Below are positions 16,234 through 56,014 of a DNA stretch of 58,482 nt, piece after piece. Both the position numbers and the translations under genes were made by a program. Position 1 is the stretch's first letter; every line of letters begins with the position of its first letter. A model generated the notes under the pieces. That model saw only the letters and a list, made by a program, of their open reading frames with translations. It made no database searches and was not told where the DNA came from. The DNA comes from Candidatus Collierbacteria bacterium (GTDB taxonomy: Bacteria > Patescibacteriota > Microgenomatia > UBA1400 > JACPES01), in assembly GCA_016219325.1 (NCBI GenBank), contig JACRNH010000007.1:1-58482 (forward strand), written 5' to 3'.

Positions 16234-16262
16234 TTGACAATAGCTACCTTTTGTCATACAAT
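16234..16262 (+). promoter_or_regulatory. Sigma70-type promoter TTGACA-N17-TACAAT, 8 nt before the ATG
   Basis: -35 at 16234-16239, -10 at 16257-16262, ATG at 16271. Confidence 0.55.
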
Positions 16263-16270
16263 CATTTGCA

Positions 16271-16543: not shown

Positions 16544-16556
16544 GGTGAGAAATACT

Positions 16557-36592: not shown

Positions 36593-36931
36593 TTAATTTT
36601 TAATTATTAAATGGCCAATTTCTTTTTTTAGGTCCTCAACGGTTGCGTCAATCGTCCGGCGGTTGGGGAGAATAACCAAATGAATGCCAAGTGTCTCCGG
36701 TAAAATATTTTGCAGGGCTGCCCGCAGCCGCCGTTTTAATTTATTCCTAACCACCGCCTTATTTGACAATTTTTTTGAAACTATTATTCCTGCTTTCGGC
36801 AATAGGTTTTGAGTTTTGACTTTTGAGTTTTGGGCTATCAATATCCCCATCAACTTCCCCGACGCCATTTTCCCGTCTTTCATTACGTCTTTGAATTCCT
36901 GCCTGGAAAGCCTGAACTTTTTCGGAAGCAT
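36593..36931 (-). CDS. rnpA: RNase P protein component
   Basis: [12 protein letters not shown]...[12 protein letters not shown] (RNR motif). 112 aa. Confidence 0.9.
36805..36833 (-). repeat. CAAAACTCAAAAGTCAAAACTCAAAAC word repeat, in frame inside rnpA
   Basis: In the sense orientation it encodes [11 protein letters not shown]. Confidence 0.9.
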
Positions 36932-38491: not shown

Positions 38492-38513
38492 AATAATATC
38501 ATTTTTTTCTCCT
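38492..38513. repeat. Right copy of the 22-bp target-site duplication
   Basis: Identical to 36940-36961. Confidence 0.9.
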
Positions 38514-38517
38514 TGAT

Positions 38518-39687: not shown

Positions 39688-39852
39688 TTATCTGCCTTTT
39701 CTGCTGGTTTTTACCGCCATTTTAATCCGGCCTTTACGGCGGCGATCGCGTAAAATATTCCGCCCGCTTTTAGTCGCGGTTCTTTTTCTGAATCCATGAA
39801 CCCTGGCCCGGTGGATTTTTGAAGGCTGATATGTCCTTTTAGTTTTTGCCAT
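39688..39852 (-). CDS. rpmH: 50S ribosomal protein L34
   Basis: Not in the ORF track (54 aa). My translation is [54 protein letters not shown], which matches the L34 signature KRTYQPS...HGFR.R..T..GR. Confidence 0.9.
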
Positions 39853-41342: not shown

Positions 41343-41648
41343 GTTATCCACAACTCGTGGAAAACTATGTGGATAACCGGTGAATTAGTCGCGGAAAACT
41401 AGGAGAATATGTTGAAAAGAATCAGGATGTTTAAGAAGTTAACAATTTGTCCACTTATTTATAAACAAGTGTTGATAATCAAAAAGAGCAATATAAAGAG
41501 TATTTTTGAGGGTTCTCGACAAATCCGCATTCCTATATACTAGGACTAATTAATATAAGAAAAACGAAATAGAAAATAATGAGTAAAGAGTAATGAGTAA
41601 TGAAATGAAAATCATTACTTTCTACTTTCTACTCATTACTCATTAATA
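41343..41648. promoter_or_regulatory. Candidate oriC (DnaA-box cluster plus AT-rich stretch) between dnaA and dnaN
   Basis: Perfect TTATCCACA at 41344-41352 and its inverted copy TGTGGATAA at 41368-41376. Near-boxes at 41356-41364, 41447-41455 and 41470-41478. AT-rich run at 41521-41580. Confidence 0.65.
41577..41645. repeat. Imperfect hairpin built from GAGTAATGA / GTAGAAAGTA words, upstream of dnaN
   Basis: Left arm GAGTAAAGAGTAATGAGTAATGA, right arm TCATTACTTTCTACTTTCTACTCATTACTCATTA. Confidence 0.8.
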
Positions 41649-42731
41649 ATGAAAATATCGATTTTGCAGGAAAATCTATCTAAGGCGGCTTTATCAATTT
41701 CTAAAATTGTTTCATCAAAGCCGCAACTCCCAATTTTATCAAATATCCTAATAAAAGCAGAGAAAGGGAAAATTGTATTTTTGGCTACAGACCTGTCAAT
41801 TTCAATGGGCCTAACTGTTGGGGGCAAAATTGAAGAAGACGGAGAGGTCTCTGTCCCGGCCAAAGAATTTACGGCCCTGATTTCCCAATTGCCGGCAGGG
41901 AAAATTGATTTGTTTTCAGAGAAGGACTCCTTGTCGATTAAATCCGGCTCATTTAAGGCCCGGTTGGTCGGATTATCCGGCGGAGAGTTTCCCAGGGTTG
42001 ATCCGCCGTCAGGCAAAGGCCTTGAAATAAAAGCCGGAGACCTGTCTTTATTATTAAGGAGGACTCTATTCGTAACAGCCAAAGACGATTCCCGGCCGAT
42101 ATTGACCGGAATTAAATTAACCGGGCCGGAGAAGGGGGAAGTAAAAGCCATGGCGACAGACGGTTACAGGCTTAGTGTTGTAACTGTCCCCGCGGGCGGA
42201 TCCATTGACGCGGCGGCCGTTATCCCGGCAAAATTTTTGTCCGAAGCCGATAAATTTTCCGGGGATGCCGGGATTGGATTAAGTATTAACAAATCAGGCG
42301 AAGCCGGGGTCGCCGGAGAAGACGGTTGGCTTTCGGGGAGGACTCTGGCAGGAGAATTCCCCCCGGCCGAGAAAATAATCCCTGAGGAGTTTGAGTTGGA
42401 AATTTCCGTAAACCGCTCCGATCTGGAGAGGGCGGTTAAAATTGCGGTAATTTTTGCCCGGAGCGCTGCCAATATAATTAAATGGGAAATTAAGTCAGGG
42501 AAATTAAAAGTTTCGGCCAACTCTCCGCAAGTCGGAGAAAACGAGACTGTCCTGGATGTTGAAGGCAAGGGAGAGGGGGAGATCGCTTTCAACGGCCGCT
42601 ATCTTTTGGACTACCTGGGATCGACGGACGAAGAGAGCGTAAATTTCGACATGATAAATTCCTTAAAGCCCGGAGTCTTTAAGGCAAAAAATTATCTCCA
42701 TGTGATTATGCCGGTGAGGGTGCAAAAATAA
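41649..42731 (+). CDS. dnaN: DNA polymerase III beta sliding clamp
   Basis: Position after dnaA, 360 aa, three-domain clamp pattern (ATDGYRLS...). Confidence 0.92.
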   Translation: MKISILQENLSKAALSISKIVSSKPQLPILSNILIKAEKGKIVFLATDLSISMGLTVGGKIEEDGEVSVPAKEFTALISQLPAGKIDLFSEKDSLSIKSGSFKARLVGLSGGEFPRVDPPSGKGLEIKAGDLSLLLRRTLFVTAKDDSRPILTGIKLTGPEKGEVKAMATDGYRLSVVTVPAGGSIDAAAVIPAKFLSEADKFSGDAGIGLSINKSGEAGVAGEDGWLSGRTLAGEFPPAEKIIPEEFELEISVNRSDLERAVKIAVIFARSAANIIKWEIKSGKLKVSANSPQVGENETVLDVEGKGEGEIAFNGRYLLDYLGSTDEESVNFDMINSLKPGVFKAKNYLHVIMPVRVQK

Positions 42732-42732: not shown

Positions 42733-42808
42733 GAGTAATGAATAGAAAGCAATGAGCAATGACTAACGTGTCCATTATTTTCTACTTTCTACTTTCTACT
42801 CATTATTT
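42733..42808. repeat. Imperfect hairpin of the same word family between the convergent dnaN and virB4-like genes
   Basis: GAGTAATGAATAGAAAGCAATGAGCAATGA ... CCATTATTTTCTACTTTCTACTTTCTACTCATTATT. Confidence 0.8.
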
Positions 42809-45800
42809 ATTTTTGGCTTCGTCTCAAAGATCGAAGTAAACTCGATTGACGGTTGGACGGCCGCCCCCGGAACCAGCGGCTTTTCATTGTTCTCTGTCTC
42901 TTGTTTCTTGTTTTCTGCTTTCTGCTCTCTACTTTCTACTTTCTGCGCCTTATTCACATCCACCTCAATCTCATTCAGGGCCAAGGGCTCGGACTCAACA
43001 GACTTTTGTGGTTTCCAATAATTGCTTTCCGGAGAAATCTTTTGTTCTCCAGTATCCATTCCGGCCTTAATGTCTAAGATCTCCTGTGGTTTGCTGGTAA
43101 TTAATTTATGCTCTTCTGGGCTGGCAATAACTTTGATGGCCACGTGATTTTGGCCGGCAAAGAAAAGCCCTTCTCCGATTTCTGATGCCATTAGCAATTG
43201 CTTTTCGCCGGCGGACAAATAAAAGGCTTCCTGTAGAGAATCGACGGCAGCAGCTGATTGTTTCATTAGGATTTGGATGCTGGAGTTGGTAACAATAGCT
43301 TTCCCATAATCAGAATGGAGGAAATCTTCAACGTCTTGAGTAATTGTTGTTAGCCCTAAATAATATTTCCGGGCCCGTTTGGCCATTGAGTATAGAAACA
43401 GGGCAGAGTCCTGATTTTTCATTAAATACCAGGCTTCGTCAACGATTAGCAGCCGGCGCTTTAATTGAGATTTAACTTTGGTCCAGATGAAGTCCAGAAT
43501 CATAAACATGGCTACGGGTCTAAGCTCATCTTCCAGATTTTTAATTCCGAAAACGATAAAATCAGCAGTCAGATTGACGTTGGTTTTTTGGTCTACCAAT
43601 CCGCGGAAACTGCCTTTGACAAATTTTTCCAGCCGGGCCGCCAGATTCGCGGCCTCCGGCGTTTCCATTCCGGCTAGGGCTTTATACAGATCTTCTAAAA
43701 GCGGAGGTTCGTTATTAAAAGTCTCCGGATTCGGGCTGATGCCATTGGCCTTATAAGCTGCGATTAAAGCCCTGTCTAAAATCGCTTCTTGGCTGGCGTC
43801 CATTGTCCCGAGCATTATTTTCATTAAAGCGTGGAGAGACAGCAGTTTTTGAGATAATTCGTTTTCGGAAGCGACGCCGGAAGATCCTCGAGCATAAGAG
43901 GGGAGGTCAAAAGGATTGATTTTAGCGGTTGAGGCAAAACTGAAATCAATATATTGGCCATTGACGGCATCTGACATCCGGTGATATTCGTCTTCCGGAT
44001 CAATCACGATAACTTCGGTGTCAAACATTAGAGAACGTAGAGCCTCAAGTTTGACGAAATAAGAATTATGGACAAACATTCCGCCATGACCGGCCAAGAA
44101 AACTCCATTGTCAACCTGTAGGTCGTAGACATATTTTTCATGGTGTTTTATTTTCTCAACAGAAACGATTGGATCCCAGAATAGGTTGGAATTAGCGAGT
44201 AGTTTTAATTGACTCAATTTTTCTTTGGCATGACGGATTTTCAGCTGGGTAGAACGATATTTTTGAGAGATATATCTGGCCGCTTTAAACAATGTCTGAT
44301 ATTTTGGATTTTTCGATTTTTCTAAAACGACAGCGTTCCATAATGATTTATCGTATTGTCGCATGGATTGGCCTTGTTGCTTGAAGGCCTCGTAAAGAAC
44401 GGAAGACAATAGCGACGCGGTTAGCGTTTTCCCTGAAACCGTTTGGTAGACAAAGAGGGCGTTTTGAGTCAATGGCGGATGTAAAAATCGTTTAATATTG
44501 CGCCAGGAGTCGCCGAGTTTTTCCCAAAGTAGGCGGTTAAATTGTTTGCTTTTTGATCCCAAACGGACAAGTCGGGAAACAGAGGGTAGTTCTCTTAATA
44601 GTTTTATGTATGGCGCGAGAGAGCGAAGCTGGTTGAGGCGAATCTCGCACAAAGAAATGGCATGTAAAAGTTGCTTTCTAGACGGATTATAGTTTCCATT
44701 TTTGATGTCAATAATGACTTGAGGAGTTTTGATTTCGGAAGTGGGATAGATAGATTTGGATAAATGTTTAAAAATTGGCTGCAGGCCGGGGACAGTATCG
44801 ACGTTAGTGTTACCGTTCCCGGTCCTCTGGAGTAAGAAAGCAAGTTTTTGGTTTTTGGTTTTAGTCAGGAAGCCGATTTTATCGGCAAATTTTTGAATTT
44901 GATCTTTTCCGGAAATGGTTATCTGAAAATAGGTGTTTTTGGTTTGTTTTTTGGTGTTGATGGCCGCTTTTCTCTTGGAATGGATTCTGGCGATAATTCC
45001 AAATCTTAACAAGATATAGGCCATATCAGAGGCAAGGTCTTTAGATTTAGTAGTGGCGGCGACTTCATGATTTTCAACTCCGCCGTCGCCCTCATAATAC
45101 GCGCGGAGATATTGGGCGATTTGATCGTTAGAGAGTGAAAAAATTCTTGGAGGAATTCGTTTTTCGCCGGATTTACCGCCGGCGCCATCGGCAATTACTT
45201 TTGTCGCGAAATCCTTCCCAGAAGAAATGCCGATCCGTTTTCCTCCAGAGCGGAGAAGATAATGTTTAATTTTAAGCGCGTTAAAAGAGTCTTTTATAAT
45301 CGAGAGAACAGCCGGATCTGTATTGAAAATTCGGACGAATTTTTGATAAATAAGCCCTTCGCTGGTAATTAACCCAAGTAAAGTTAGATACTCTTGAGAA
45401 AGAGAAAAATTGGATGCAGGCTTAGGAATAAAACGAGGGAGGGGAACGCATTCGCCAGCGGCGACAGCTTCGGCTCGTATGGTGCGGATTTTCCCGTTTC
45501 TCATAATAATCATTTGGTGATCCGGAGTTACGGTAATTTCGCGGCCGCTTTTCGTGCTGATTTTGTAAATTTTCCGGCGTTTATTGAAAGTTTTTCTAGC
45601 TGCTATCTCAACGTTTGCCCAGATCGGTTTTTGATTTTGATCGTAGGTGAGGACTTGAAGTTTAGGGTTGACGACTCCATCAGACTCGTTGCTAAATGTT
45701 ACGACTTTTTTTTGAGACATCAGATTATTGATAAGCTGCCCGATTTCGCAGATTTTGACCTCACCAGTATTGTGTCTAACGATAACTTTTGACTGATACA

Positions 45801-46614
45801 TCAGGCATTTTCCAGCTCCAGATTTTGCGAACACGACCATGTTGGCATTCTCTCTGGAAAAGCGGTCAAACACAACCAGGCTGTCATTATGCTCGTTGAT
45901 TCCGTATAAAATTCCTTCATTGGCCGAAAGCTCACTTGAGGTAAACGGAAAAGTTGTTGCCAGAGAAGTGGTGTCCATATTCCTGGTGATATTCAAAAAG
46001 TCCTGTCCCAAGGGTTGAGTGGTTTTGAAGGCCTGCTCCATTACAAATGACGCCGGTTTGGCGATAATTAATAGCGACCCCAGCGTGGATTGAATTTGTT
46101 TGGTAATATGATTTAATTCTTCTTCGTTGTCCGCCCCGATAGTTACGTATAGGCCAAACTGATAGAAGCGCTCCGAGCCTTTTGCCAATTGTTCCTGCAG
46201 GGCTTTGGCGTCTTCGAGCTTAACTTGAGTATCAATATTGGCAATCCGGCCCCGTTGCATATCGGAGTTTATCTCGGCTTCCATTTCTGTAATTTTCCGG
46301 CGCAGGTTTTCCAAAACTCCTTTGCCTTCAACCGGGTAAATAAACATTGAGACATCCAGCGAATGGTCAAAGTTGATAAGCGGCGACAGCCAGTTGGCGG
46401 CCACAAACCGCGGATATCCGGCCACAAACAGAGTCCTAACCAAGCGGTTGCCGATTTTGAGATTGGTAAAATCTACTTCAATCGCGTCCGGGGCCAAGAT
46501 GTCCTGGATAGTGGTAATTCCCTGGGCAAACTGGGTAACCGGTGAAAATTCCTTGGATTTTGGATCCTCGGACTTCTTTGGTTTAAACGGATTCACTAAA
46601 AACGGGATGTTCAT
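42796..46614 (-). CDS. virB4: VirB4/TraC/TrsE-family T4SS ATPase precursor containing an intein
   Basis: Walker A FAKSGAGK is interrupted at aa 270. After aa 850 come SYFVKLEAL..., Walker B RLLIVDEAWY, ARKYYLGLTTITQ and the C-terminal VirB4 pattern. Extein length is 691 aa. Confidence 0.85.
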   Translation of the reverse strand: MNIPFLVNPFKPKKSEDPKSKEFSPVTQFAQGITTIQDILAPDAIEVDFTNLKIGNRLVRTLFVAGYPRFVAANWLSPLINFDHSLDVSMFIYPVEGKGVLENLRRKITEMEAEINSDMQRGRIANIDTQVKLEDAKALQEQLAKGSERFYQFGLYVTIGADNEEELNHITKQIQSTLGSLLIIAKPASFVMEQAFKTTQPLGQDFLNITRNMDTTSLATTFPFTSSELSANEGILYGINEHNDSLVVFDRFSRENANMVVFAKSGAGKCLMYQSKVIVRHNTGEVKICEIGQLINNLMSQKKVVTFSNESDGVVNPKLQVLTYDQNQKPIWANVEIAARKTFNKRRKIYKISTKSGREITVTPDHQMIIMRNGKIRTIRAEAVAAGECVPLPRFIPKPASNFSLSQEYLTLLGLITSEGLIYQKFVRIFNTDPAVLSIIKDSFNALKIKHYLLRSGGKRIGISSGKDFATKVIADGAGGKSGEKRIPPRIFSLSNDQIAQYLRAYYEGDGGVENHEVAATTKSKDLASDMAYILLRFGIIARIHSKRKAAINTKKQTKNTYFQITISGKDQIQKFADKIGFLTKTKNQKLAFLLQRTGNGNTNVDTVPGLQPIFKHLSKSIYPTSEIKTPQVIIDIKNGNYNPSRKQLLHAISLCEIRLNQLRSLAPYIKLLRELPSVSRLVRLGSKSKQFNRLLWEKLGDSWRNIKRFLHPPLTQNALFVYQTVSGKTLTASLLSSVLYEAFKQQGQSMRQYDKSLWNAVVLEKSKNPKYQTLFKAARYISQKYRSTQLKIRHAKEKLSQLKLLANSNLFWDPIVSVEKIKHHEKYVYDLQVDNGVFLAGHGGMFVHNSYFVKLEALRSLMFDTEVIVIDPEDEYHRMSDAVNGQYIDFSFASTAKINPFDLPSYARGSSGVASENELSQKLLSLHALMKIMLGTMDASQEAILDRALIAAYKANGISPNPETFNNEPPLLEDLYKALAGMETPEAANLAARLEKFVKGSFRGLVDQKTNVNLTADFIVFGIKNLEDELRPVAMFMILDFIWTKVKSQLKRRLLIVDEAWYLMKNQDSALFLYSMAKRARKYYLGLTTITQDVEDFLHSDYGKAIVTNSSIQILMKQSAAAVDSLQEAFYLSAGEKQLLMASEIGEGLFFAGQNHVAIKVIASPEEHKLITSKPQEILDIKAGMDTGEQKISPESNYWKPQKSVESEPLALNEIEVDVNKAQKVESREQKAENKKQETENNEKPLVPGAAVQPSIEFTSIFETKPKINNE
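44065..45807 (-). mobile_element. 581-aa intein with a LAGLIDADG homing-endonuclease domain, inserted in the VirB4 P-loop
   Basis: Starts with Cys (GAGK|CLMYQSKVIV). Block B is TVTPDHQM. LAGLIDADG motifs are LLGLITSEG and YLRAYYEGDGG. Ends ...GMFVHN|S, with Ser as the +1 extein residue. Excision restores GKSGAGKS. Confidence 0.85.
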
Positions 46615-46645
46615 TGTTTCTTGTTCATTGTTTCTTGCTCATTGG
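46610..46645. repeat. Tandem 14-nt repeat TTCATTGTTTCTTG x2 plus a partial unit, at the junction of two T4SS genes
   Basis: Read directly. Encodes the NEQETMNKKQ tail of the upstream ORF and carries the virB4 start codon. Confidence 0.85.
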
Positions 46646-47315
46646 TTTTTATAATCGGTTCTACCAAAGGAGCGGTTAAGTTGACGGTGTCGATCTCCGG
46701 GGCGGCGTAGCCTGGATTATAAGTTCGGTATAAAAGAGATAATAGTTCTTTATTGGTTAATTGTCTCGCGGTCAGGCCGATTCTCTCCAACTGTTTGACG
46801 ACGTGATCTCTTTTTGGGCCTAAGGAAACCTGGGCCTTTTTAACGATTTCAGTTAGCGGAGCAGGGAGCCGGTTTTGATTGGCAACAGCCAGCCCCAGAG
46901 ATTTAACAGAACCTAGCTCCAGCGACGAGAAGGGCAATATTATATAAAACTTTTTATCCAAAACATTTCGGCGTTGGACGGTATCGGCCACAAATTGGCG
47001 GTAAGACTCAATCCATGACCGCTTGGTCGGAGACATTTGTTTTTTAGCGGCCGCCGCCAGCAACCCTAAATACGCGCTGATGTCTTTTCTTTCGGAGCGG
47101 ATTAAAATTTGAACCGGGAAATTCAGTGAATTGAGGAGGGCGGCGTAAGCGTAAATAATCGCGTCCTGCTCCTCCTGCGACAGTAGGCCGAAATTTACCG
47201 CCGAAGTTTCAATCACCATGGCGGCGGAACCGTTTTTCAATATAACCAGATTTTCCAGGATATCATGAATTGGAAGATGGTCTTGAGTGGTAGAAAGGAT
47301 TGGTTGGACAGACAT
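46611..47315 (-). CDS. T4SS-associated protein resembling the N-terminal region of VirB4/TraC
   Basis: LPIHDILENLVILKNGSAAMVIETSAVNFGLLSQEEQDAIIYAYAALLNSLNFPVQILI matches the pattern at the N-terminus of Gram-positive VirB4-like ATPases. No P-loop. Start trimmed to the ATG at 47315. Confidence 0.45.
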   Translation of the reverse strand: MSVQPILSTTQDHLPIHDILENLVILKNGSAAMVIETSAVNFGLLSQEEQDAIIYAYAALLNSLNFPVQILIRSERKDISAYLGLLAAAAKKQMSPTKRSWIESYRQFVADTVQRRNVLDKKFYIILPFSSLELGSVKSLGLAVANQNRLPAPLTEIVKKAQVSLGPKRDHVVKQLERIGLTARQLTNKELLSLLYRTYNPGYAAPEIDTVNLTAPLVEPIIKTNEQETMNKKQ

Positions 47316-47320
47316 TTTAT

Positions 47321-47397
47321 AATGAGTAATGAGTAGGAAGTAGAAAGTAATGAAATTATTTTGCATTACTCATTATTTTCTACTCATTGTTTTCTGT
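47321..47397. repeat. Imperfect hairpin of the GAGTAATGA / GTAGAAAGTA word family
   Basis: AATGAGTAATGAGTAGGAAGTAGAAAGTAATGA - loop - ATTACTCATTATTTTCTACTCATTGTTTTCTG. Lies between the PrgI-like and 234-aa genes. Confidence 0.8.
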
Positions 47398-48516
47398 TTT
47401 TTTAGCTCGGATTTCAATCGGCGGAATTACAAACCCTCCGGCTTCAATTTTAAGTATATCAAAGGTAAGGTTGTCTTTTTCCGTAATAACCTCATAGCTT
47501 CCGTTTTCAAGAGGAGTGGCGATGGCAAAATGGCCGAGTTTGTTAGATTTTACGGCTCTGACGGGCAAATGATCACTAAGTCTTCTGATTTCAATAATCG
47601 CTCCGTCGGCTATTTGTCCGTCTGCGGCGACTACTATTCCGGCTAAAATATTCGGGGAAGTGGGAGCCGACGGCAAAATTAAAGATTGCATAACGGTGGC
47701 GGAGATTGCGCCTGCTCCGGACTTACTCTCTTGAGTATTGAAGGCGGGGAGTTTAATTGAAGACAACCCAAGCCTTTCTAGTTGAGCCGATTCCTCTTTA
47801 AATTTCTTTTCTGTCGTTGGAGCAATAGGAACGTCTCCGATCGCCACGGGTTGATTTTTGGGAATTTGGAGGTGGTGGGGGGGGAGAGTAATTTCCCCGC
47901 GCAGAACAGCTTCCGGATCATCAGGAGGATCTAAAGGATGAAGTACGGGAATTAAATCAGAAAGATGATGTCCGGAATCCACCGGCCTAATTTGGGGAAA
48001 AGTTGTTTGATTAATTATTTGCTGGGATACGGTTACTTCAGAAAACATTTGCGGTACAGCCGCCATTTTTTTATCCCAATCAGACAACAATGGATCTTCA
48101 GCAGTTTCTTCAGCGATTTTATAGGCTGAAAGTAAAGATTCTAATTTTGCGGTGGGCATCTTTATTGCCGAGTCTAAAACCGATTTTGATTCCGTTGGTT
48201 TGGCCTGAAAACTTAAAATGTCATCGCGGGAAGTTTTTTTCCACACAAAAATAGTCGGGCGGTAAATCGCCCGGAAAAAAGCGATGAACCACTGGTCCAA
48301 AGGTCGGTCCTCCAAAGGCATAAACGCCAGGCCGAAACCCAGCATGACTGCCAAAATTATCAGAGGCCAGCGGATAAAAGCGGGAAGATCCATTCCCCAA
48401 ATCAGCCAGCCGGCCACGACTCCGCCGGCCAATTCAAGGAATTGTTTTAGGGTCATATCGCCGACCAGGCGGAATTGATAACTAGTTACATTCTGTGGTA
48501 TTGGATGCTCAATCAC
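47380..48516 (-). CDS. PrgI-family (VirB3-analogue) membrane protein with an extracellular beta-sandwich C-terminal region
   Basis: IPQNVTSYQFRLVGDMTLKQFLELAGGVVAG...two TM...MPLEDRPLDQWFIAFFRAIYRP fits the PrgI family layout. The C-terminus GIVVAADGQIADGAIIEI...SNKLGHFAI...ENGSYEV looks CarboxypepD_reg-like. Confidence 0.6.
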   Translation of the reverse strand: MIEHPIPQNVTSYQFRLVGDMTLKQFLELAGGVVAGWLIWGMDLPAFIRWPLIILAVMLGFGLAFMPLEDRPLDQWFIAFFRAIYRPTIFVWKKTSRDDILSFQAKPTESKSVLDSAIKMPTAKLESLLSAYKIAEETAEDPLLSDWDKKMAAVPQMFSEVTVSQQIINQTTFPQIRPVDSGHHLSDLIPVLHPLDPPDDPEAVLRGEITLPPHHLQIPKNQPVAIGDVPIAPTTEKKFKEESAQLERLGLSSIKLPAFNTQESKSGAGAISATVMQSLILPSAPTSPNILAGIVVAADGQIADGAIIEIRRLSDHLPVRAVKSNKLGHFAIATPLENGSYEVITEKDNLTFDILKIEAGGFVIPPIEIRAKKTENNE

Positions 48517-48657
48517 GGTAATTCCTTTCTTTGTCGGATTGTCCTGCGAAGCAGGATCTGGCTCTGCCAGAGATGTTCAATCATTCAATCTAATTTTATA
48601 CTGGAAAAGAGGGAGGGGCAAGGTCGGCGAATATTACGTTTTACGGTTGGCGGTTGG

Positions 48658-48686
48658 TTGACTTTTGTATGACATTGTTATACGAT
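48658..48686 (+). promoter_or_regulatory. Sigma70-type promoter TTGACT-N17-TACGAT, 8 nt before the ATG
   Basis: -35 at 48658-48663, -10 at 48681-48686, ATG at 48695. Confidence 0.45.
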
Positions 48687-48694
48687 TGAAAAGA

Positions 48695-48964
48695 ATGACT
48701 TTTGTTGTCAAAGAAGTTGTTTGGGACGATTTTAATATCGCGCACATTGGAGAGTACGATGTTAGCGTTGATGAAGTAGAGGAGGTTTGCAACGGAAAAG
48801 TTGAGGCATATTTGGGCCACTCGGATCGGTTTATGATTATCGGCAAAACTGTGGCCGGTAGGATTTTATCAATCGTATTGGCGCAAAAATCAAAAGGGGT
48901 AGTTTATCCGGTAACCGCCAGAGATGCCAGCCGGAAAGAAAGGGGGTGGATTAAAAATGACTAA
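48695..48964 (+). CDS. BrnT-like (DUF497) toxin
   Basis: VVWDDFNIAHIGEYDVSVDEVEEV...RILSIVL...VYPVTARDASRKER fits the DUF497 pattern. Start trimmed to the ATG at 48695. Confidence 0.6.
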   Translation: MTFVVKEVVWDDFNIAHIGEYDVSVDEVEEVCNGKVEAYLGHSDRFMIIGKTVAGRILSIVLAQKSKGVVYPVTARDASRKERGWIKND

Positions 48965-49217
48965 AAAACATTTACCAAAATTTAAATCTAACCAAGAAGA
49001 AGCCCGATTTTGGGACAGTCATGACATGACCGATTATTTTGACCGGAACAAAAAAGTAGTGCTGGATTTTTCCGGCGCCAAAAAAAAGAAAGAGAGTATT
49101 TTAACCGTCAGATTACAGCCGGAGATAAAAATGAGGCTGGGGGCGGTAGCGGAAGAAATGGGAATTCAGACCTCAACTTTGGCCAGAATGTGGTTGGTGG
49201 AGAAATTGAGAGGTTAG
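48957..49217 (+). CDS. BrnA-like CopG/RHH antitoxin
   Basis: FKSNQEEARFWDSHDMTDYFD...ILTVRLQPEIKMRLGAVAEEMGIQTSTLARMWLVEKL. GGGGGTGG SD-like motif upstream. Overlaps the toxin stop by 8 nt. Confidence 0.6.
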   Translation: MTKKHLPKFKSNQEEARFWDSHDMTDYFDRNKKVVLDFSGAKKKKESILTVRLQPEIKMRLGAVAEEMGIQTSTLARMWLVEKLRG

Positions 49218-49366
49218 TTGGCAAAGCGGCATTTTATCGCCCTCGGGACGCATGGACAATTGTATTTCAGACCTCAACTTTGGCCAGAATGTGGTTGGTG
49301 GAGAAATTGAGAGGTTAGTTGGCAAAGCGGCATTTTATCGCCCTCGGGACGCATGGACAATTGTAT
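49165..49366 (+). repeat. Perfect tandem duplication of a 101-bp unit
   Basis: 49165-49265 is identical by eye to 49266-49366. The unit comprises the last 53 nt of brnA plus 48 nt downstream. Confidence 0.9.
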
Positions 49367-49378
49367 TAATGATTTTTG

Positions 49379-50425
49379 TTATTGTGCTGAATCAGCGAGA
49401 GCTGGAAGATAGAGCAGGGCAGAGACATTTTTACCATTACGAAATTGAGCGTGTCCGGTTAGAATAAAAATCGGCTGGAGGAATAATTGATTTTGAGAAA
49501 ACTCCTGATAATAGCCAATACTAGCACCTTCAACTACAATTTTATTGATTTCGTTTTCGCCCAACGAGGACAAATCAATATTTCCGTTATCTAAAGATAA
49601 AACTTTTGCATCTTTAAGACTGATTAAAAGTGTAGAGAAGGTTTTTAATTGACGCTCTCCTTCTATTTCAAGAATATTGGTTTGGTCAATATACGCCGAG
49701 ACAACAGAATTCTCTCTATTCAGCGTTACATTAATAGTCCCAACATCAGGAGTGGCGTTGACGACAGGGTATTGGCTTAATATTTCTTTAAAACGGATCT
49801 CAGCCACGCCTGCGTTTTCTTTCTCAGCCTCAATCAGCCCTTCTTCTACCATATTCAGATAACGGACCTGAGAAGAAGAGGAGATCTCTTCTGTTATTAA
49901 TCCGGTTCCGACAAGAAAACGTTTTGCCTTAGAAACAATTTCCTGTTCGCTTTTAAACGGACCTTTTCTTGTTTCTGGTTGAGATTGAGCTCTTTTATAG
50001 TCAATAATGCGGAGATTGGCAACAATTCTTAGATTTCCTATTTTGGTGTCTGACCAAATGTAAACTGGACCAAACCTAACGTCGTTAAGCGATTGCGGAT
50101 CATCGGAAAATCCGAAGAAGAAAGCAATTTTCACGCTCTCCTCAAGAGATAGGTTTGATTGACCAAGAGAATAAACAGGGAGCGAGGCCGGGATATTAAT
50201 ATCGCTTTTCTTTAATAAGGCCTCGATATTCAGTGATCCTTTGCTGTAATTTGACTCTATTATTGGTTTATGGACAGGCGGTTTCTGAAAAGAAGGTCTT
50301 TTTTGAAACGCTTTATTTAATATCAGCATTACGATAGTTATTCCAAGAGCTGCGATAACAACGATAGTAAGAGTTCTCTTTTTGGACATTTGTATTAATG
50401 TACTCATGGGATATTGATATTGCAA
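49379..50425 (-). CDS. Membrane-anchored secreted protein of the T4SS-like cluster
   Basis: 348-aa ORF with an N-terminal TM (RTLTIVVIAALGITIVMLIL). The likely true start is an internal ATG near 50389. No recognised motif. Confidence 0.5.
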   Translation of the reverse strand: MQYQYPMSTLIQMSKKRTLTIVVIAALGITIVMLILNKAFQKRPSFQKPPVHKPIIESNYSKGSLNIEALLKKSDINIPASLPVYSLGQSNLSLEESVKIAFFFGFSDDPQSLNDVRFGPVYIWSDTKIGNLRIVANLRIIDYKRAQSQPETRKGPFKSEQEIVSKAKRFLVGTGLITEEISSSSQVRYLNMVEEGLIEAEKENAGVAEIRFKEILSQYPVVNATPDVGTINVTLNRENSVVSAYIDQTNILEIEGERQLKTFSTLLISLKDAKVLSLDNGNIDLSSLGENEINKIVVEGASIGYYQEFSQNQLFLQPIFILTGHAQFRNGKNVSALLYLPALADSAQ

Positions 50426-53403
50426 TTACCAACACAGCCAATAGGAACAGTTATTGGGATATATGGTTTTATCATATGTGGCGGAGGATCTTGTCTGGAC
50501 TTGTAATTGCCACCAACATCTCTAAATTCATAATGAAGATGAGGACCAGAGCTTCTTCCTGTCGATCCGACAACGCCAATAACGTCGCCGCCTTTTACCG
50601 ATTGTCCTTCTGCAACAGATAAGACAGACATATGAACATAAACTGTTCGGAAGTTTCCACCGCAGCTATCTTTAATATGAACATAATTTGCGCCGTATCC
50701 GTCGACTCTCGCTTCGATAACTGTTCCCGGATGGGTTGCAATTACAACATTGTTTGACGTTACTGTCCCGGGAGGAGTGATGTCTAAAGCTTCTACATAA
50801 GGGCATTTGGCATTTGGGTCGTTGGCGGTCGGACAATTCGCGGGCTGGCTAGGGAGCGATGGGCCGTGAGTTGCCCATCCTCCCGGCCCTTGGGCGATAT
50901 AATATTTTTGCCCTCTTGAAATGTCGACAGGCCAGGCTTCCGCAGGACAACCCTGTAAAGAAATTCCACCAAATGGAGCATTTTCAGTCGGCACAAATAG
51001 TCCGGCGTTGGTGGTGGGCTGGACGAAAAAGACAGTGATAATTGCGCCTAAGGTGATGCCGGCAATTCCTGTGGCCGCAATTGTTGAACCAAGTCCGCCG
51101 ATTAAGCCGGGCGCTCCGAGAAGTGCGGCCATGTTTCCCAGCCCCAGCGCTCCTGATCCCAAAGCCGATCCGGCCCCCGCCAAAACATTTCCCAGCCCTC
51201 CGGCAGCTTGAATTCCAAGTCCGGTGGCAAACCCCAAACCGGCACCGATTGCTGTTCCGGCTCCGGGAAGGATTAATGTTCCGATCAGAGCTCCGCCGCC
51301 GGTGGAAAATGCCAGCCCTCCGAATTGGCCCAGAAGCCCAAATAATCCGGACAGCAAAGTTTGGCCAAAAAAGAATCCGCCGGCCAGAGCGGTGCCGATT
51401 CCTTCGCGGTTATTCCAGACAAACTGGCCGATGTCTCCAAGAATTGAAAGAGCGGTTATTACTCCGGCAACTTGGCCAACGACAGGAGCTGCTTGGGCTA
51501 TTAATGCGGCCGCGCCTTTGCCGACTGCCATCAAGCCTAGTTTTGTGGCCGCTTTGACGACGCCTTTTTTAGCCAACCAAGCTCCGGCTTTGGCCAAACC
51601 GGATTTAATTTGAGTTCCGGCCCAAGTTTTGGCATTATTAAATCCTGCGGATATAGCCGTTCCGACTGCTTTGAAAGGGCTGGCGGCGGCATTGCCTAAC
51701 TTTCCAAAACCTCCTCCGACAGTAGAAAAGAAATTAAAAATTGAATTAACGGCTTCCGATTGGACTCTTAATCCGGAAAACACGGCTTGAGCCGACGAAA
51801 ATATCCGGTTGACCGGCGGCAGGCGGTTTAAGTTATAGCGGACGGCTTTACCAATGTCTAAGGTCTGAATTATTGACCGCCAACTGTTTTGTAAGCCAAG
51901 ATTGATGGCGCGGAATTTTTCGCCGGACGATTGCATCTGATTTAATCCTGATTGAGCCGCGCCCAATTCTCTGTAGATAGGATTGTCAGGCGGAAGCGGC
52001 GGTTGAATCGGGATCCCGAAAATGGGTTTTCCGTTGGCCAGACTATTTAAATGCGCCTCAAGACTTTTTGGCGTGACTCCAGCCAATAACATTGTTACAT
52101 AATCGGGCGGTTGGCCTAATTGTTGAGATAGCCTGATTGTCAGGGCGGCGGCGTCTCCGGTTGAGAGTTTGTTGGCGCGGATGGCCGCGGACAATCTGAA
52201 AGGGAAAAGACCAGGATTTATCCGGGCCAGATTGATTAGAGAATTCTCGTCTATGGTTTCAGAAATTGAAGGATGATCAGAACTTTTGGCAAGAGTTAAA
52301 ATTGCAGGCCTAATGCCGTCTATTATTTCCTGCTCGGTTTCCGGAGTTGCTCCGCGGAGTACTTGTCTTAAAATCCGCAATTGTTGGTCAGGCCGGTCGT
52401 GGTATTTGGCCAAGGCTTCAGCCAGGCGCGGAGTTTGTTTTGTCTTCAGTGTTTGGCCATGTTTGGCTAAGGCGGCCTCGATTTCACCTTTGACGATATT
52501 TTCAGCGACATTTCTGTTTCTGGGAGAAGTTTTTTGTTCGGCTTGAAACGCTTTGGCGGCCGGATCGACTGTTTTGGCGGTTTCGTCGGCCAGATTTTTA
52601 GCGTCAGCCATGGCGTTTTTCCGGTCGGCCTTGGGAGTTTTTGCTAAAGCCACCGCCAAATTGCGGTCGCTTTTTAGATTTTTTTCCAATTGAGCGGAAA
52701 AATAGATGGCGGCATGAGACGGGTCGGCTATGCCGAGTTGATTGAGGGCTAAGGCCGTAATGGATTGATTGACAGCCAAATCAATTCTTTGAGCCAGAAA
52801 GCGGTTGACGGCTTCTTTCCCATAAATAGTTTGCAGGTCGCGGATATATGATGAATTGGTTAAAGTTGTAAATAAGCTTTTGGAAACGTTAACCCTCAAC
52901 AGTTGGGTGCGAATGCTGATTTCTTGGATTTGTTTGATTTGGGCTGCGAGTTGCATCGGCCGGCCAAGTTCTTGTTTTAATTTTTTAGTGGTTTTGGCTT
53001 GGGCCTCCAGTATGTCTTGGAGTTCCTGAAGCTTAGCCTTGGTCGGGACCACCGCGTCCATTGATTTTTCGGCTGGAGGAGGAGCCATTACAGCTTCCAG
53101 GCTCTTGCCCAATGTTTCAAGATGTTCTATTTTTAAGACGGATAAATCAGCAAAAAGTCCGTCGTCAAGAGGATTGTTTAATGCCCGGTTAAATTGGGAT
53201 AAATCCGCCAGCAATTGTTTAAAAAAAATAATTTGGCCGGCAACCGTAATTTGGGCGGTTAAATCCGGCCGGGGGGATTGAGCTAATATCTTTTTTAAGG
53301 CCTCAATTTCAGCTTTAACAGTTAATGGTTCAAACCAATCTCCAGAGCTTAATATCTGTCTGGCCGCGGCTAGCGCCTCCTGATCCGTTACGGTGGTTGC
53401 CAT
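50404..53403 (-). CDS. Large T4SS-associated membrane protein with a C-terminal M23/LytM-like peptidase domain
   Basis: 999 aa. About 550 aa of helical N-terminus, then a Gly/Ala-rich multi-TM block (aa about 560-790), then C-terminal GDVIGVVGSTGRSSGPHLHYEF (M23 HxH motif). The first HxxxD motif is not obvious. Confidence 0.65.
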   Translation of the reverse strand: MATTVTDQEALAAARQILSSGDWFEPLTVKAEIEALKKILAQSPRPDLTAQITVAGQIIFFKQLLADLSQFNRALNNPLDDGLFADLSVLKIEHLETLGKSLEAVMAPPPAEKSMDAVVPTKAKLQELQDILEAQAKTTKKLKQELGRPMQLAAQIKQIQEISIRTQLLRVNVSKSLFTTLTNSSYIRDLQTIYGKEAVNRFLAQRIDLAVNQSITALALNQLGIADPSHAAIYFSAQLEKNLKSDRNLAVALAKTPKADRKNAMADAKNLADETAKTVDPAAKAFQAEQKTSPRNRNVAENIVKGEIEAALAKHGQTLKTKQTPRLAEALAKYHDRPDQQLRILRQVLRGATPETEQEIIDGIRPAILTLAKSSDHPSISETIDENSLINLARINPGLFPFRLSAAIRANKLSTGDAAALTIRLSQQLGQPPDYVTMLLAGVTPKSLEAHLNSLANGKPIFGIPIQPPLPPDNPIYRELGAAQSGLNQMQSSGEKFRAINLGLQNSWRSIIQTLDIGKAVRYNLNRLPPVNRIFSSAQAVFSGLRVQSEAVNSIFNFFSTVGGGFGKLGNAAASPFKAVGTAISAGFNNAKTWAGTQIKSGLAKAGAWLAKKGVVKAATKLGLMAVGKGAAALIAQAAPVVGQVAGVITALSILGDIGQFVWNNREGIGTALAGGFFFGQTLLSGLFGLLGQFGGLAFSTGGGALIGTLILPGAGTAIGAGLGFATGLGIQAAGGLGNVLAGAGSALGSGALGLGNMAALLGAPGLIGGLGSTIAATGIAGITLGAIITVFFVQPTTNAGLFVPTENAPFGGISLQGCPAEAWPVDISRGQKYYIAQGPGGWATHGPSLPSQPANCPTANDPNAKCPYVEALDITPPGTVTSNNVVIATHPGTVIEARVDGYGANYVHIKDSCGGNFRTVYVHMSVLSVAEGQSVKGGDVIGVVGSTGRSSGPHLHYEFRDVGGNYKSRQDPPPHMIKPYIPITVPIGCVGNCNINIP

Positions 53404-53442
53404 ACGATTATCTTAGCATTTACCTCCCAGATTATCTGAATC

Positions 53443-53479
53443 TTGATTTAGTGCATAGTGCACTGTATACTATGCACTA
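53443..53479 (+). promoter_or_regulatory. Promoter TTGATT-N17-TATACT with an embedded 11-bp inverted repeat (putative operator)
   Basis: -35 at 53443-53448, -10 at 53466-53471, ATG at 53479 (7 nt after the -10). The inverted repeat TAGTGCATAGT (53449-53459) / ACTATGCACTA (53469-53479) brackets the -10. Confidence 0.55.
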
Positions 53480-54453
53480 TGATCACGGACACTAAGGAAA
53501 AAATCATTCAATTTATCAAGCTGAACGGCCGGGCCAGGATTATTGACTTGAAAGAATTTTTGGGAATAGGGAATACGGCCATTCATCGGCAGCTGAAGCG
53601 GTTGGTTTCAACCGGGGTTTTAATGAAAGCTGGGACAGCGCCGAAGGTGTTTTATGTTTTGGAGGAAGAAAATCGTGGATCAGACAGGAATGGGAAAACA
53701 AATGAACTAGTTGAAAAAACTTTTTTGTATGTTTCTCCGTCTGGAGAGATGCTGAGCGGCAGAAGAGGTTTTGAGATTTGGGCCAAAAAGGCGGACCGGG
53801 AAATAAATGCCGCAATGATTGAGTACGTAGAAACGAGAGGAAAAGCGAATACATTTATTGGGGAAAATGGATGGATTGACGCTACAGAAAAAATAAAAAA
53901 CACTTTCAAAAACGTTTATTTGGACAAAGTTTTATACAAAGATTTTTATGCCATGCCGGTTTTCGGTAAAACCCGGCTAGGTCAGTTGGTTTTATATGGA
54001 AAGCAATCGCAAGACTTGGGGATTATCAGGCAGACCGCCAAAGAATCAAAAGAGCTGATTGAGAAGATTATTGTTTTTTTTGGCATACAGGCGGTAAGCT
54101 TTTTGCCCCATAGTATTCCCCGTCGGCTTCAATATCTGAAAGAATTCAGAAAATTCCTAAATCTTAAATTGCCGGAAATCGATTTAGTTAAGGCTTATGC
54201 CGGCCAAATTCCGGTTGCTCAAAAATCATTGTCCAGCCTGGAAGAAAGAATAGAAAATGCCCGTAAAACGATTATGATTAGAGACTTAAAACCCAGATTT
54301 GAGTCTATACTATTAATTGACGATGCGGTCGGTTCAGGCGCGACTCTAAACGAAACCGCCAAAAAATTAAAAGCGATTGGAATAGCCAAAAAAGTAGTCG
54401 GGTTTGCCGTCGTTGGCAGTATGAAGGGGTTTGAGGTGATTAGAGAGGTGTAG
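53479..54453 (+). CDS. wHTH - ComF-like phosphoribosyltransferase-domain protein
   Basis: N-terminal winged helix (IIDLKEFLGIGNTAIHRQLKRLVSTGVL). C-terminal type-I PRTase motif ILLIDDAVGSGATLNETAKKLKAIG with ComF-like upstream spacing. Start trimmed to the ATG at 53479. Confidence 0.65.
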   Translation: MITDTKEKIIQFIKLNGRARIIDLKEFLGIGNTAIHRQLKRLVSTGVLMKAGTAPKVFYVLEEENRGSDRNGKTNELVEKTFLYVSPSGEMLSGRRGFEIWAKKADREINAAMIEYVETRGKANTFIGENGWIDATEKIKNTFKNVYLDKVLYKDFYAMPVFGKTRLGQLVLYGKQSQDLGIIRQTAKESKELIEKIIVFFGIQAVSFLPHSIPRRLQYLKEFRKFLNLKLPEIDLVKAYAGQIPVAQKSLSSLEERIENARKTIMIRDLKPRFESILLIDDAVGSGATLNETAKKLKAIGIAKKVVGFAVVGSMKGFEVIREV

Positions 54454-54465: not shown

Positions 54466-54504
54466 TTGACACGATTCTATTTACTGCACATAATATGCAG
54501 TAAA
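54466..54504 (+). promoter_or_regulatory. Promoter TTGACA-N17-CATAAT with a 9-bp inverted repeat TTTACTGCA/TGCAGTAAA
   Basis: -35 at 54466-54471, -10 at 54489-54494, ATG at 54504. The inverted repeat at 54480-54504 brackets the -10. Confidence 0.55.
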
Positions 54505-55070
54505 TGGAAACGTATAATTTGGCTCAAGCTACTCAAATCCTGTTTACAACTCCGATTGCCGTCTTCTCTAGCGAATCGTTGGCCGCGACATTAAAAATAT
54601 CCAAGGAAAGGTCAGCGTTCTCTGTTATTTCCAGATTGCTAAAAAACGGTATTTTAGAAAAGGCAGGGAAAGATTGCTATATTCTTGCCCAAAAACCCGC
54701 CCATCAATTTTTAATCGCTAATTATTATTACAAGCCTTCTTATGTTTCATTTGAGTCAGCCCTCTCGCATTATGGAATTTTGTCTCAATTTCCGGTTGAG
54801 GTAACCAGCGCGACGCCGCTTAAAACAGCCAAATACTGCTCGAAAGATAAAATGTATTCTTATGCGCATCTAAAAAAAGATTTGTTTTGGGGTTATGATA
54901 AAAGCCAAGACGGATTTTTAATCGCCAGCCCGGAAAAAGCCGTCCTCGATCAGGCATATTTGGCCTCTAAAGGCCTAAAATCTTTTTCTAAAGACGAATT
55001 GGACTGGTCTCTGGTCGACAGAAAAAAGTTGTTAAATTACGCCAAAATGTATCCAGACCTTTCTCTATGA
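54504..55070 (+). CDS. abiEi: AbiEi-family antitoxin / transcriptional regulator (type IV TA)
   Basis: The N-terminal wHTH and PSYVSFESALSHYGILSQFP are typical of AbiEi. 4-nt overlap with the downstream NTase toxin gene. Confidence 0.75.
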   Translation: METYNLAQATQILFTTPIAVFSSESLAATLKISKERSAFSVISRLLKNGILEKAGKDCYILAQKPAHQFLIANYYYKPSYVSFESALSHYGILSQFPVEVTSATPLKTAKYCSKDKMYSYAHLKKDLFWGYDKSQDGFLIASPEKAVLDQAYLASKGLKSFSKDELDWSLVDRKKLLNYAKMYPDLSL

Positions 55071-55834
55071 TTACCTTGGTTCAGTTAAAATCATTTGCCA
55101 GGCAATATAAAACCAACGACGCCACGGTTTTTCGCGAATATTTACAGTTACTTTTTTTAAGCCGTCTTTATGGATATTCTGATAACCGGCAGATTGTTTT
55201 CAAGGGCGGGACAGCTATACATTTTATTTATAACGCTCCCCGATTTTCCGAAGATTTGGACTTTACTGTGGTCATGCCGGAAAAAGAATTTACACAGAGC
55301 TTAAAAAAAACTTTTGCAGCCCTGGAAAGCGAAGGCCAGATAAGTTTTAAGCAAAGGAAGACTTTAACCGGGAAAAGATTTTTGCTTACGGCGGCGCTTC
55401 CCGATTCGTCTCTAAAATCTTTTATTAATCTTGATTTTTCGTTCAGGGAAAAAGTTTTCGAATTTCAGTTCAGTTTTATCAAATCAGAATATCCAATATT
55501 ATTCACTTCGCAAGTTCCGCACATGTCTAAAAACGAAATTGTCGCTGACAAAATCAGGGCAATAATGCGGCGGAAAAAGGGAAGAGATATCTACGATTTA
55601 TGGTATTTATTGGCCCAAGGCGCGAGGGCGGACCAAAAATTGATTGCCGAAAAATTTAAATATTATGATGAAAAGTTTATTTTTAAAAAACTAATAGAAA
55701 GAATTGAAGAATTTCCAAAAACAAATTTTATAAACGACCTAAAGCCATTTGTTCAATTTCAAGAGCGCGAAAAATTGGGAGAACTGTTTGTTTACATTAT
55801 TGGATTTCTTAAACACGTTTCAACGTCTGCCTGA
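55067..55834 (+). CDS. abiEii: AbiEii/AbiGii-family nucleotidyltransferase toxin (DUF1814)
   Basis: FKGGTAIHFIYNAPRFSEDLDFT and RGRDIYDLWYL motifs. Confidence 0.85.
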   Translation: MITLVQLKSFARQYKTNDATVFREYLQLLFLSRLYGYSDNRQIVFKGGTAIHFIYNAPRFSEDLDFTVVMPEKEFTQSLKKTFAALESEGQISFKQRKTLTGKRFLLTAALPDSSLKSFINLDFSFREKVFEFQFSFIKSEYPILFTSQVPHMSKNEIVADKIRAIMRRKKGRDIYDLWYLLAQGARADQKLIAEKFKYYDEKFIFKKLIERIEEFPKTNFINDLKPFVQFQEREKLGELFVYIIGFLKHVSTSA

Positions 55835-55979
55835 TCTGTTAGGGTTGTTGCCATACAATTATCTTAACATTGTAGAGAAACCACACAAATTGTAGTTTGA
55901 TATTGGTGGGAATAATTAGGATAATTAAATTAGTCGAGAAGCCTTATTTCGATATAAATGCCTATTTTGTAAGGTTTAC

Positions 55980-56008
55980 TTGACAATAACAGTACTCTTA
56001 TGTAAGAT
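55980..56008 (+). promoter_or_regulatory. Sigma70-type promoter TTGACA-N17-TAAGAT, 6 nt before the ATG
   Basis: -35 at 55980-55985, -10 at 56003-56008, ATG at 56015. Confidence 0.55.
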
Positions 56009-56014
56009 AGTAAC

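Follow-up and report, generated by a model that had tools for sequence, protein, structure and literature searches.

The 58,482-nucleotide contig JACRNH010000007.1 of Candidatus Collierbacteria bacterium (assembly GCA_016219325.1), referred to in its full length as the window, carries a compact cluster of type IV secretion system (T4SS) genes on its minus strand. From position 53403 down to 42796, the cluster comprises the genes for a 999-aa protein, a 348-aa membrane-anchored protein, a PrgI/VirB3-like protein, a TrsD-like protein and the ATPase VirB4; dnaN and the likely origin of replication (oriC) lie at its downstream end, and a divergent gene encoding a winged helix-turn-helix (wHTH) followed by a type I phosphoribosyltransferase (PRTase) domain lies at the other (Table 1). 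All genes listed in an earlier annotation that had been made from the sequence alone (the first-pass annotation) were reproduced by open reading frame (ORF) listing and translation. Its description of a compact T4SS-like module beside dnaN and oriC, with neither relaxase nor coupling protein nearby, was confirmed as well, and the module can be specified as of the Gram-positive type. With a probability of about 0.8, the cluster is one more example of the already published relaxase-less T4SS of Patescibacteria located beside the origin, and neither a conjugation nor a competence machine. As such, the main result opens no new question.

The virB4 ORF spans 1272 codons because a 581-aa intein, overlooked when the gene was first identified as encoding a VirB4 ATPase, interrupts the Walker A motif (GAGK|S). 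The ATPase assignment itself is well founded: the best curated model is NCBIfam conju_CD1110 (358 bits, cut-off 325), Pfam P-loop_TraG matched at 8e-25, and the closest solved structure to spliced VirB4 is the C-terminal domain of Thermoanaerobacter VirB4 (PDB 4AG5, E 3.7e-45). Spliced VirB4 has thousands of homologues, the best 120 of which are 64-80% identical and belong to Patescibacteria wherever the source is named; the named genomes include Collier-, Woese-, Chisholm-, Shapiro- and Pacebacteria, the nearest named relative being encoded on a Ca. Collierbacteria contig (81% identity), and several homologues sit on contigs of 0.8-0.9 Mb. Judging from the profile score and the nearest homologues, VirB4 would fall within the patescibacterial clade nested in MPF-FATA, the monoderm type of mating-pair formation (MPF) system.

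The products of the neighbouring genes are in line with this assignment. The 234-aa protein, noted earlier for its resemblance to the N-terminal region of VirB4, turned out to be TrsD/TraD-like, as it matched NCBIfam TrsD at 2.8e-10 (40 bits, below the cut-off) and the N-terminal part of VirB4, and its orthologues carry Pfam TraC-like; a PDB sequence search with this protein yielded no match. Its stop codon overlaps the virB4 start by 4 nt. The 378-aa protein had been predicted to consist of a PrgI-family domain fused to a beta-sandwich ectodomain. The first part was verified by a match to Pfam PrgI at aa 5-87, which like that of VirB4 is above the model's cut-off (29.2 bits versus 27), with a transmembrane (TM) hairpin at aa 26-68; the beta-sandwich was not confirmed, as a PDB sequence search with the C-terminal region gave no match. 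In the 999-aa protein, a stretch rich in glycine (23%) and alanine (18%) with about seven hydrophobic segments (aa 618-793) and a C-terminal Pfam Peptidase_M23 domain (3e-21) were both found as proposed.

Table 1. Features of the cluster and of the adjoining origin region (positions in the window).
Feature	Position	Strand	Remarks
dnaA	39942..41342	+	DnaA motifs in translation; orthologues with Pfam Bac_DnaA; context only
dnaA-dnaN spacer, likely oriC	41343..41648	.	306 bp; DnaA boxes
dnaN	41649..42731	+	convergent with virB4
virB4 precursor gene	42796..46614	-	1272 aa; N-extein 45808-46614, intein 44065-45807, C-extein 42796-44064
Intein with LAGLIDADG homing endonuclease	44065..45807	-	581 aa, inside Walker A (GAGK^C...VHN^S)
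TrsD-like gene	46611..47315	-	234 aa from conserved Met; ORF runs on to 47366 (251 aa)
PrgI/VirB3-like membrane protein gene	47380..48516	-	378 aa, extended C-terminal region
BrnT/BrnA toxin-antitoxin cassette	48665..49217	+	two small ORFs, opposite strand to operon
348-aa membrane-anchored extracytoplasmic protein gene	49379..50425	-	predicted YycI-like fold
999-aa protein gene	50404..53403	-	polytopic block nt 51025-51552; M23 nt 50512-50757; helical N-terminal region
Inverted repeat TAGTGCATAGT-N9-ACTATGCACTA	53449..53479	.	perfect, 11-nt; at start of wHTH-PRTase gene
wHTH + type I PRTase gene	53458..54453	+	331-aa ORF; probable start ATG 53479 (324 aa)

The 348-aa protein possesses a single N-terminal TM helix (aa 16-41), in agreement with its annotation as membrane-anchored. 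Its AlphaFold2 (AF2) model, built from 9 sequences, reached a mean predicted local distance difference test score (pLDDT) of 78.5, and the only PDB matches below E 1e-3 in a Foldseek search were two chains of Bacillus subtilis YycI (2o3o, 2.6e-6). The N-terminal TM helix and a similar size had made a TcpC/VirB8-like protein a candidate, which was rejected as no VirB8, TcpC or TraM chain occurred among the top 50 Foldseek matches. According to the model, the protein is thus probably a membrane-anchored extracytoplasmic protein of YycI-like fold and not a recognisable VirB8. A literature search for YycI-like T4SS parts gave no relevant result.

Plain searches barely detected relatives of the 348-aa and 999-aa proteins: a word-indexed protein search returned only 9 relatives of the 348-aa protein, and an exact-sequence look-up found no record of it. 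Hidden Markov models (HMMs) iterated on the ORFs of related loci revealed both families, the 348-aa family in 33 loci and always adjoining T4SS genes, and the N-terminal region of the 999-aa protein in 50 loci, also beside T4SS genes. Members of the latter family span about 900 to 1600 aa and differ in the C-terminal enzyme, which across 40 members is M23 in 28, CHAP in 2, NAGPA in 2 and an SLT-like lysozyme domain (SLT_3) in 1. M23/LytM, SLT and CHAP are domain classes of Gram-positive T4SS wall hydrolases such as PrgK and TraG. Examples of hydrolase exchange, in which M23 plus NAGPA, NAGPA alone or an SLT-like domain is present, are found in L004 (3300-6902), L084 (1729-5487) and L001 (2808-5819), designations that here and below denote related loci. 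By this exchange, the protein may be adapted to the walls of different hosts.

For comparison of gene order, a genome-collection scan provided 80 VirB4 loci, mostly from Microgenomates-type metagenome-assembled genomes; the synteny counts are based on 83 loci, with which the proteins of the window were compared by tblastn. Next to VirB4, TrsD was found in 72 of these loci, dnaA in 71, dnaN in 70 and PrgI, positioned upstream of TrsD, in 66-68. The commonest full order was large protein, 348-like protein, PrgI, TrsD and VirB4, then dnaA/dnaN, with dnaA/dnaN on the same strand in 16 loci and on the opposite strand in 6; in a variant seen in 6 more loci, including the complete chromosome L030, the first two genes are located downstream of VirB4. 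As this order recurs in the related loci, the conserved module consists of five genes, and its core, as predicted by these comparisons, is a glycine-zipper/hydrolase protein, a YycI-like anchored protein, a PrgI/VirB3-like protein, a TrsD-like protein and a VirB4 of monoderm (MPF-FATA, CD1110-like) type. A five-gene core can thereby be described for Microgenomates and their relatives. The wHTH-PRTase gene is a neighbour outside of this module. The borders of the cluster had been thought to be fixed by dnaN on one side and the PRTase gene on the other; only the former holds, since the PRTase gene is absent in the closest relative, L001.

The conserved order also bears on the question whether the cluster is a decayed integrative and conjugative element (ICE), the remnant of an ICE or plasmid transfer region that would have inserted close to the origin and in which the genes for relaxase and coupling protein have since disappeared. 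In favour of such an origin, VirB4, TrsD and PrgI have homologues among the conjugation proteins of Firmicutes elements, VirB4 itself harbors a mobile element, the intein, and an insertion sequence transposase, a defence-type ATPase, an AbiE pair and toxin-antitoxin cassettes are located nearby. However, gene order and the site at dnaA/dnaN are kept across several candidate phyla, in 83 genomes whose VirB4 proteins are 58-81% identical, which indicates long vertical inheritance under selection and not decay. In addition, all five ORFs are intact, and no integrase or repeats flanking the module were found in the window. In the monophyletic patescibacterial VirB4 clade, 99.3% of nearest neighbours fall in the same class (Quinonero-Coronel et al., 2025; PMC12102498). 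An ICE remnant was therefore rejected on the conservation of synteny and is considered highly improbable.

The module adjoins oriC, as perfect DnaA boxes lie in the dnaA-dnaN spacer and the cumulative GC-skew minimum is located nearby, at about 37-40 kb of the window. Two of the three perfect DnaA boxes of the whole window fall in this 306-bp spacer (41344-41352 and 41368-41376), and a further box with one mismatch occurs at 41470-41478. Only 64 bp separate the virB4 stop from dnaN. The first-pass annotation had reported no relaxase, coupling ATPase, VirB11 or pilin within the cluster. This could be extended to the whole 58-kb window, where Pfam scans of all ORFs of at least 120 aa identified no relaxase, no type IV coupling protein (T4CP), no VirB11, no ComEC and no type IV pilus component. 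A heuristic screen, as opposed to an HMM search, for free pilin-like ORFs (50-220 aa, at least two hydrophobic segments) found none in or beside the cluster; the sole free two-TM ORF of the window (77 aa, 16508-16741) is about 26 kb away.

These features largely coincide with those of the T4SS described by Quinonero-Coronel et al. (2025; PMC12102498), whose analysis of 3035 patescibacterial genomes placed VirB4 in a monophyletic clade within MPF-FATA. TrsD, PrgI/VirB3, VirB6 and VirB2-like genes were widespread in that survey and relaxases nearly absent, and in Paceibacteria and Microgenomatia the system was located near dnaA/dnaN. In common with that system, the cluster has a monoderm (MPF-FATA-derived) VirB4 with adjacent TrsD and PrgI/VirB3 and associated peptidoglycan hydrolases, lacks a relaxase or T4CP nearby, and is chromosomal and beside dnaA/dnaN. 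It differs in the intein within VirB4 and in two further conserved families, the glycine-zipper/hydrolase and the YycI-like proteins, which occupy the remaining slots. For Microgenomatia, the same study found VirB6 to be scarce, VirB8 to be almost absent and PrgI to be rarely linked to VirB4, whereas PrgI accompanies VirB4 in most of the loci compared here. The two families, missed by profile searches, are candidates for the 'missing' VirB6, VirB1 and VirB8 roles.

The published system derives from monoderm conjugation machinery, and the relationship to Gram-positive conjugative T4SSs (pCF10 Prg, pGO1 Trs, CTn2 CD1110, pIP501 Tra) is evident from a VirB4 above the CD1110 cut-off, the homologous PrgI and TrsD proteins and the shared M23/LytM, SLT and CHAP hydrolase classes. 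In contrast to those systems, the cluster has no relaxase, T4CP, oriT or adhesin and is not situated on a mobile element, no VirB8-like NTF2-fold protein was detected, and the hydrolase forms one polypeptide with a polytopic membrane block.

In a possible scheme, VirB4 would first be matured by protein splicing of its P-loop intein, and PrgI and TrsD would dock the VirB4 hexamer at the membrane. The 999-aa protein would form the membrane channel and open the peptidoglycan, either the cell's own or that of the host, with the 348-aa protein as an extracytoplasmic scaffold. The T4SS would then serve the transfer of macromolecules between epibiont and host, a task that would be essential for epibiotic growth in Saccharibacteria. 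Transposon sequencing of Southlakia epibionticum, the sole patescibacterium studied genetically so far, has demonstrated that its T4SS genes (SEML1_0006-0019) are essential for epibiotic growth, whereas ComEC, ComF and DprA are not fitness genes, and cells with a comEC deletion are viable but no longer transformable (Wang et al., 2023; PMC10633639); a 2025 review (PMC12857230) likewise concludes that the T4SS is essential and the com genes are not. The cargo of the patescibacterial T4SS is an important problem for the biology of ultrasmall epibiotic bacteria.

Several points weigh against the assignment of the cluster to the published T4SS and against parts of this scheme. Essentiality is known from one Saccharibacteria species only. 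VirB2-like pilins, which according to the survey are common in Microgenomatia, as genes or arrays near virB4 that are frequent and not universal, were not found in the 58-kb window and may lie elsewhere in the genome. Similarly, a T4CP gene may exist outside of the window; among the 83 loci, T4CP-like genes occur within 10 kb of VirB4 in only two (L009, 20446-21711; L034, 4814-6859). We can only infer the channel role of the polytopic block, because none of 40 members of the 999-aa family matched a VirB6, TrbL or PrgH model. The 348-aa protein matches YycI to a moderate degree (TM-scores of 0.40/0.54), and the splicing competence of the intein is predicted from its motifs.

These motifs comprise Cys1, a TPDH block B, the terminal HN (VHN|S) and a +1 Ser, along with two LAGLIDADG motifs (LLGLITSEG and YYEGDGG), and the matches to Pfam Intein_splicing (1.4e-16), LAGLIDADG_3 (6.6e-19) and TIGR01445 are all above cut-off. 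The junctions can be read directly from the translation (...AKSGAGK | CLMYQS ... GMFVHN | SYFVKLE), and excision of residues 270-850 recreates GAGKS in a product of 691 aa. The intein is absent from all 83 related loci (tblastn), and the two closest relatives of VirB4 (80-81% identity) also lack it. When the intein alone was searched against 1.84 billion representative proteins, VirB4 homologues of this lineage accounted for 12 of the 14 best matches, and more distant VirB4-like ATPases for the other two; the nearest relative is only 43% identical, and the insertion point, GxGK^(C/S)...HN^S, is identical in every match where the junction is present. The Walker A site of patescibacterial VirB4 recurs as a homing target and is sporadically occupied. 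On this evidence, a P-loop intein has colonised this VirB4 lineage repeatedly, which would make an essential machine dependent on protein splicing. P-loop ATPase inteins have been catalogued previously, including five in VirB4 proteins from Firmicutes and Proteobacteria (Novikova et al., 2016; PMC4760082). The present intein shares with them the insertion inside Walker A and the Cys1/TxxH/HN+Ser architecture with a LAGLIDADG endonuclease, but differs in its host, a chromosomal patescibacterial VirB4; inteins are not mentioned in the survey of Patescibacteria T4SSs (PMC12102498). A LAGLIDADG intein also resides in a ribonucleotide reductase gene of another patescibacterial genome (L086, in which this gene and the T4CP-like gene described below occupy 3230-6154 and 12798-15128).

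The divergent neighbour of the cluster had been labelled a ComF-like PRTase, and its pairing with the T4SS had led to the proposal of a ComB-like DNA-uptake apparatus. The label does not apply. The 331-aa ORF reached only 21.6 bits against TIGR00201 comF (cut-off 233.55), within its last 60 residues, and 23.2 bits against Pfam Pribosyltran (cut-off 26.3). Instead of the four-Cys zinc finger of ComF, the N-terminus carries a winged helix (HTH_24; AF2 helices at aa 9-51), the only N-terminal cysteines lying in a doubtful 7-residue extension. A PDB sequence search returned no ComF and only marginal matches to MntR and hypoxanthine-guanine PRTase (HGPRT), and the best PADLOC matches were PRTase domains of defence proteins (PsyrT with 38.8 bits, the retron type III-A PRTase and ShosT). 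The AF2 model is confident (pLDDT 89.9), and Foldseek yielded nearly equal matches to Helicobacter pylori ComF (7p0h, E 7e-6), B. subtilis PurR (E 9e-6), HGPRTs, PyrR and ShosT, a tie that points to a generic type I PRTase preceded by a wHTH. With B. subtilis PurR (1p4a, 7rmw) and ComFC (7p0h), the protein shares the type I PRTase fold and an intact phosphoribosyl pyrophosphate (PRPP) loop, and with PurR also the order of winged helix and PRTase domain; it differs from both by an identity of only 11-18% and about 100 extra residues between the wHTH and the PRTase core. It has the architecture of PurR and should not be annotated as ComF. The family comprises about 2000 members of 325-330 aa with an invariant PRPP loop (DDAxGSG) and, judged from the source names, which are patescibacterial where given, appears to be largely confined to Patescibacteria.

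The postulated co-conservation of this gene with the VirB4 module also failed to hold. Among the 83 VirB4 loci, the PRTase gene was absent in L001, whose VirB4 is 80% identical, present as a mere fragment in L004, and not located within 10 kb of VirB4 in the other 81. The divergent arrangement with the 999-aa gene was found in the window, L090 and L091, and in L084/L089 the gene lies 4-7 kb from the T4SS. Adjacency to the T4SS occurs only among family members at least 69% identical; those at 60% identity or below adjoin ATP synthase, ribonucleotide reductase or toxin-antitoxin genes. The pairing is thus best explained as local synteny within a narrow clade.

In a ComB-like system, the T4SS would import external or host DNA and pass it on to a ComF-like PRTase for nucleotides or transformation. 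Like H. pylori ComB with ComEC/ComFC, the present T4SS has neither relaxase nor coupling protein and is not encoded on a plasmid. Moreover, H. pylori ComF is nominally the top structural match of the PRTase model, the divergent arrangement recurs in two further loci, VirB4 weakly matches the archaeal DNA importer CedB (34 bits, cut-off 700), and comF, recG and radA have been noted near T4SS genes in the class ABY1, in a study that already proposed import of DNA or other macromolecules by Patescibacteria T4SSs (PMC12102498). However, the neighbour is not a ComF, several other PRTases match its fold nearly as well, its more distant relatives reside elsewhere, and the conserved putative operator described below is what would be expected of a transcription factor. 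ComB, a diderm MPF-T system, includes VirB7, VirB9 and VirB10; neither these nor VirB6 or VirB8 domains were identified among the window ORFs by profile scans. Its function is the transport of DNA across an outer membrane, a structure that monoderm Patescibacteria do not possess. As transformation in Saccharibacteria requires ComEC and the T4SS is independently essential, the ComB analogy is poorly supported, and a role in DNA uptake of this kind appears quite unlikely.

A perfect 11-nt inverted repeat overlaps the start codon of the wHTH-PRTase gene, in the spacer of 75 bp between this gene and the divergent 999-aa gene. It is kept upstream of the orthologues in L087, L089, L090 and L091, and hence in five loci including the window. 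The repeat is likely to be the operator of this patescibacterial regulator family, as its conservation, also in L089 where the upstream neighbour is not a T4SS gene, fits an autoregulated DNA-binding protein. The widespread wHTH-PRTase family can thereby be described more cleanly, with a putative operator of its own. The same spacer would allow for a control of the T4SS by nucleotide status: sensing PRPP or (p)ppGpp in the manner of PurR, the wHTH-PRTase would act as a repressor of the divergent T4SS operon. The PurR-like architecture and fold, the invariant PRPP loop, the position of the repeat inside the divergent spacer and the arrangement common to the window, L090 and L091 are in agreement with such a control. 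However, the repeat accompanies the PRTase gene even without a T4SS upstream, so that autoregulation alone is sufficient, and most family members are not near T4SS genes; we regard this control as unlikely. It is equally doubtful that, in an extension of this idea, the T4SS imports host nucleic acids or nucleotide precursors and is tied to nucleotide status by the PurR-like PRTase, with the hydrolase head of the 999-aa protein breaching the host wall. Next to the published T4SS, the wHTH-PRTase would rather be an autoregulated DNA-binding protein and a chance neighbour within a genus-level clade.

Directly after the wHTH-PRTase gene, an AbiEi/AbiEii pair and a PDC-S01-type AAA_14/DUF4143 ATPase are encoded (54504-57145, plus strand). 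AbiEi/AbiEii pairs recur beside PRTase homologues in the window, L084, L085 and L087/L088, and the N-terminal wHTH gives weak AbiEi matches, which together hint at an association of the wHTH-PRTase with defence or toxin-antitoxin functions. In L086, a T4CP-like gene (DUF8128/TrwB/TraG-D_C) is located 2 kb from a wHTH-PRTase homologue; a T4CP travelling with the PRTase gene was seen only in this locus.

The BrnTA-like cassette on the opposite strand within the cluster was recovered as annotated, with the antitoxin BrnA matching CopG_antitoxin at 55.5 bits and BrnT matching Pfam BrnT_toxin at 25.6 bits, which is below the cut-off. It is absent from all 83 relatives (tblastn), and the gap between the 348-like gene and PrgI measures 863 bp here compared to 7-354 bp in the relatives, so that the cassette represents a secondary insertion into the operon. 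This gap appears as a hot spot for differing toxin-antitoxin insertions: BrnTA in the window (48516-49379), a PIN pair in L001 (7003-7663) and other small genes in L090 (3065-4259). In L001, the 348-like gene is seemingly replaced by ORFs of 136 aa and 112 aa.

According to the Pfam scans, the remaining ORFs of at least 120 aa represent ordinary origin-proximal housekeeping genes, among them those for ribosomal proteins, EF-G, EF-Tu, GroEL, tRNA synthetases, TsaD/Sua5-TsaE, two YidC proteins, KhpB and the rnpA/yidD/rpmH group, together with many toxin-antitoxin pairs; tRNA and Rfam scans of the window gave no match. For a small genome, toxin-antitoxin modules are unusually dense (15271-16835, 23479-24134, 26748-27388): two PIN toxins are preceded by antitoxins, and a Fic/antitoxin pair and a second BrnT/BrnA-like pair (16271-16835) are also present. 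Between rnpA (36593-36931) and rpmH (39688-39852), the plus strand encodes a DDE_Tnp_1 transposase of 453 aa and contains a 388-aa ORF without annotation (37024-39684). This insertion interrupts the origin cluster rpmH-rnpA-yidD-yidC, the genes of which are contiguous in L001 and L002. Finally, the window encodes a free-standing 189-aa M23 peptidase (11833-12402, plus strand) and a second, divergent YidC paralogue (17441-18208, minus strand) that scored 59 bits as compared to 164 bits for the copy at 35592-36359.

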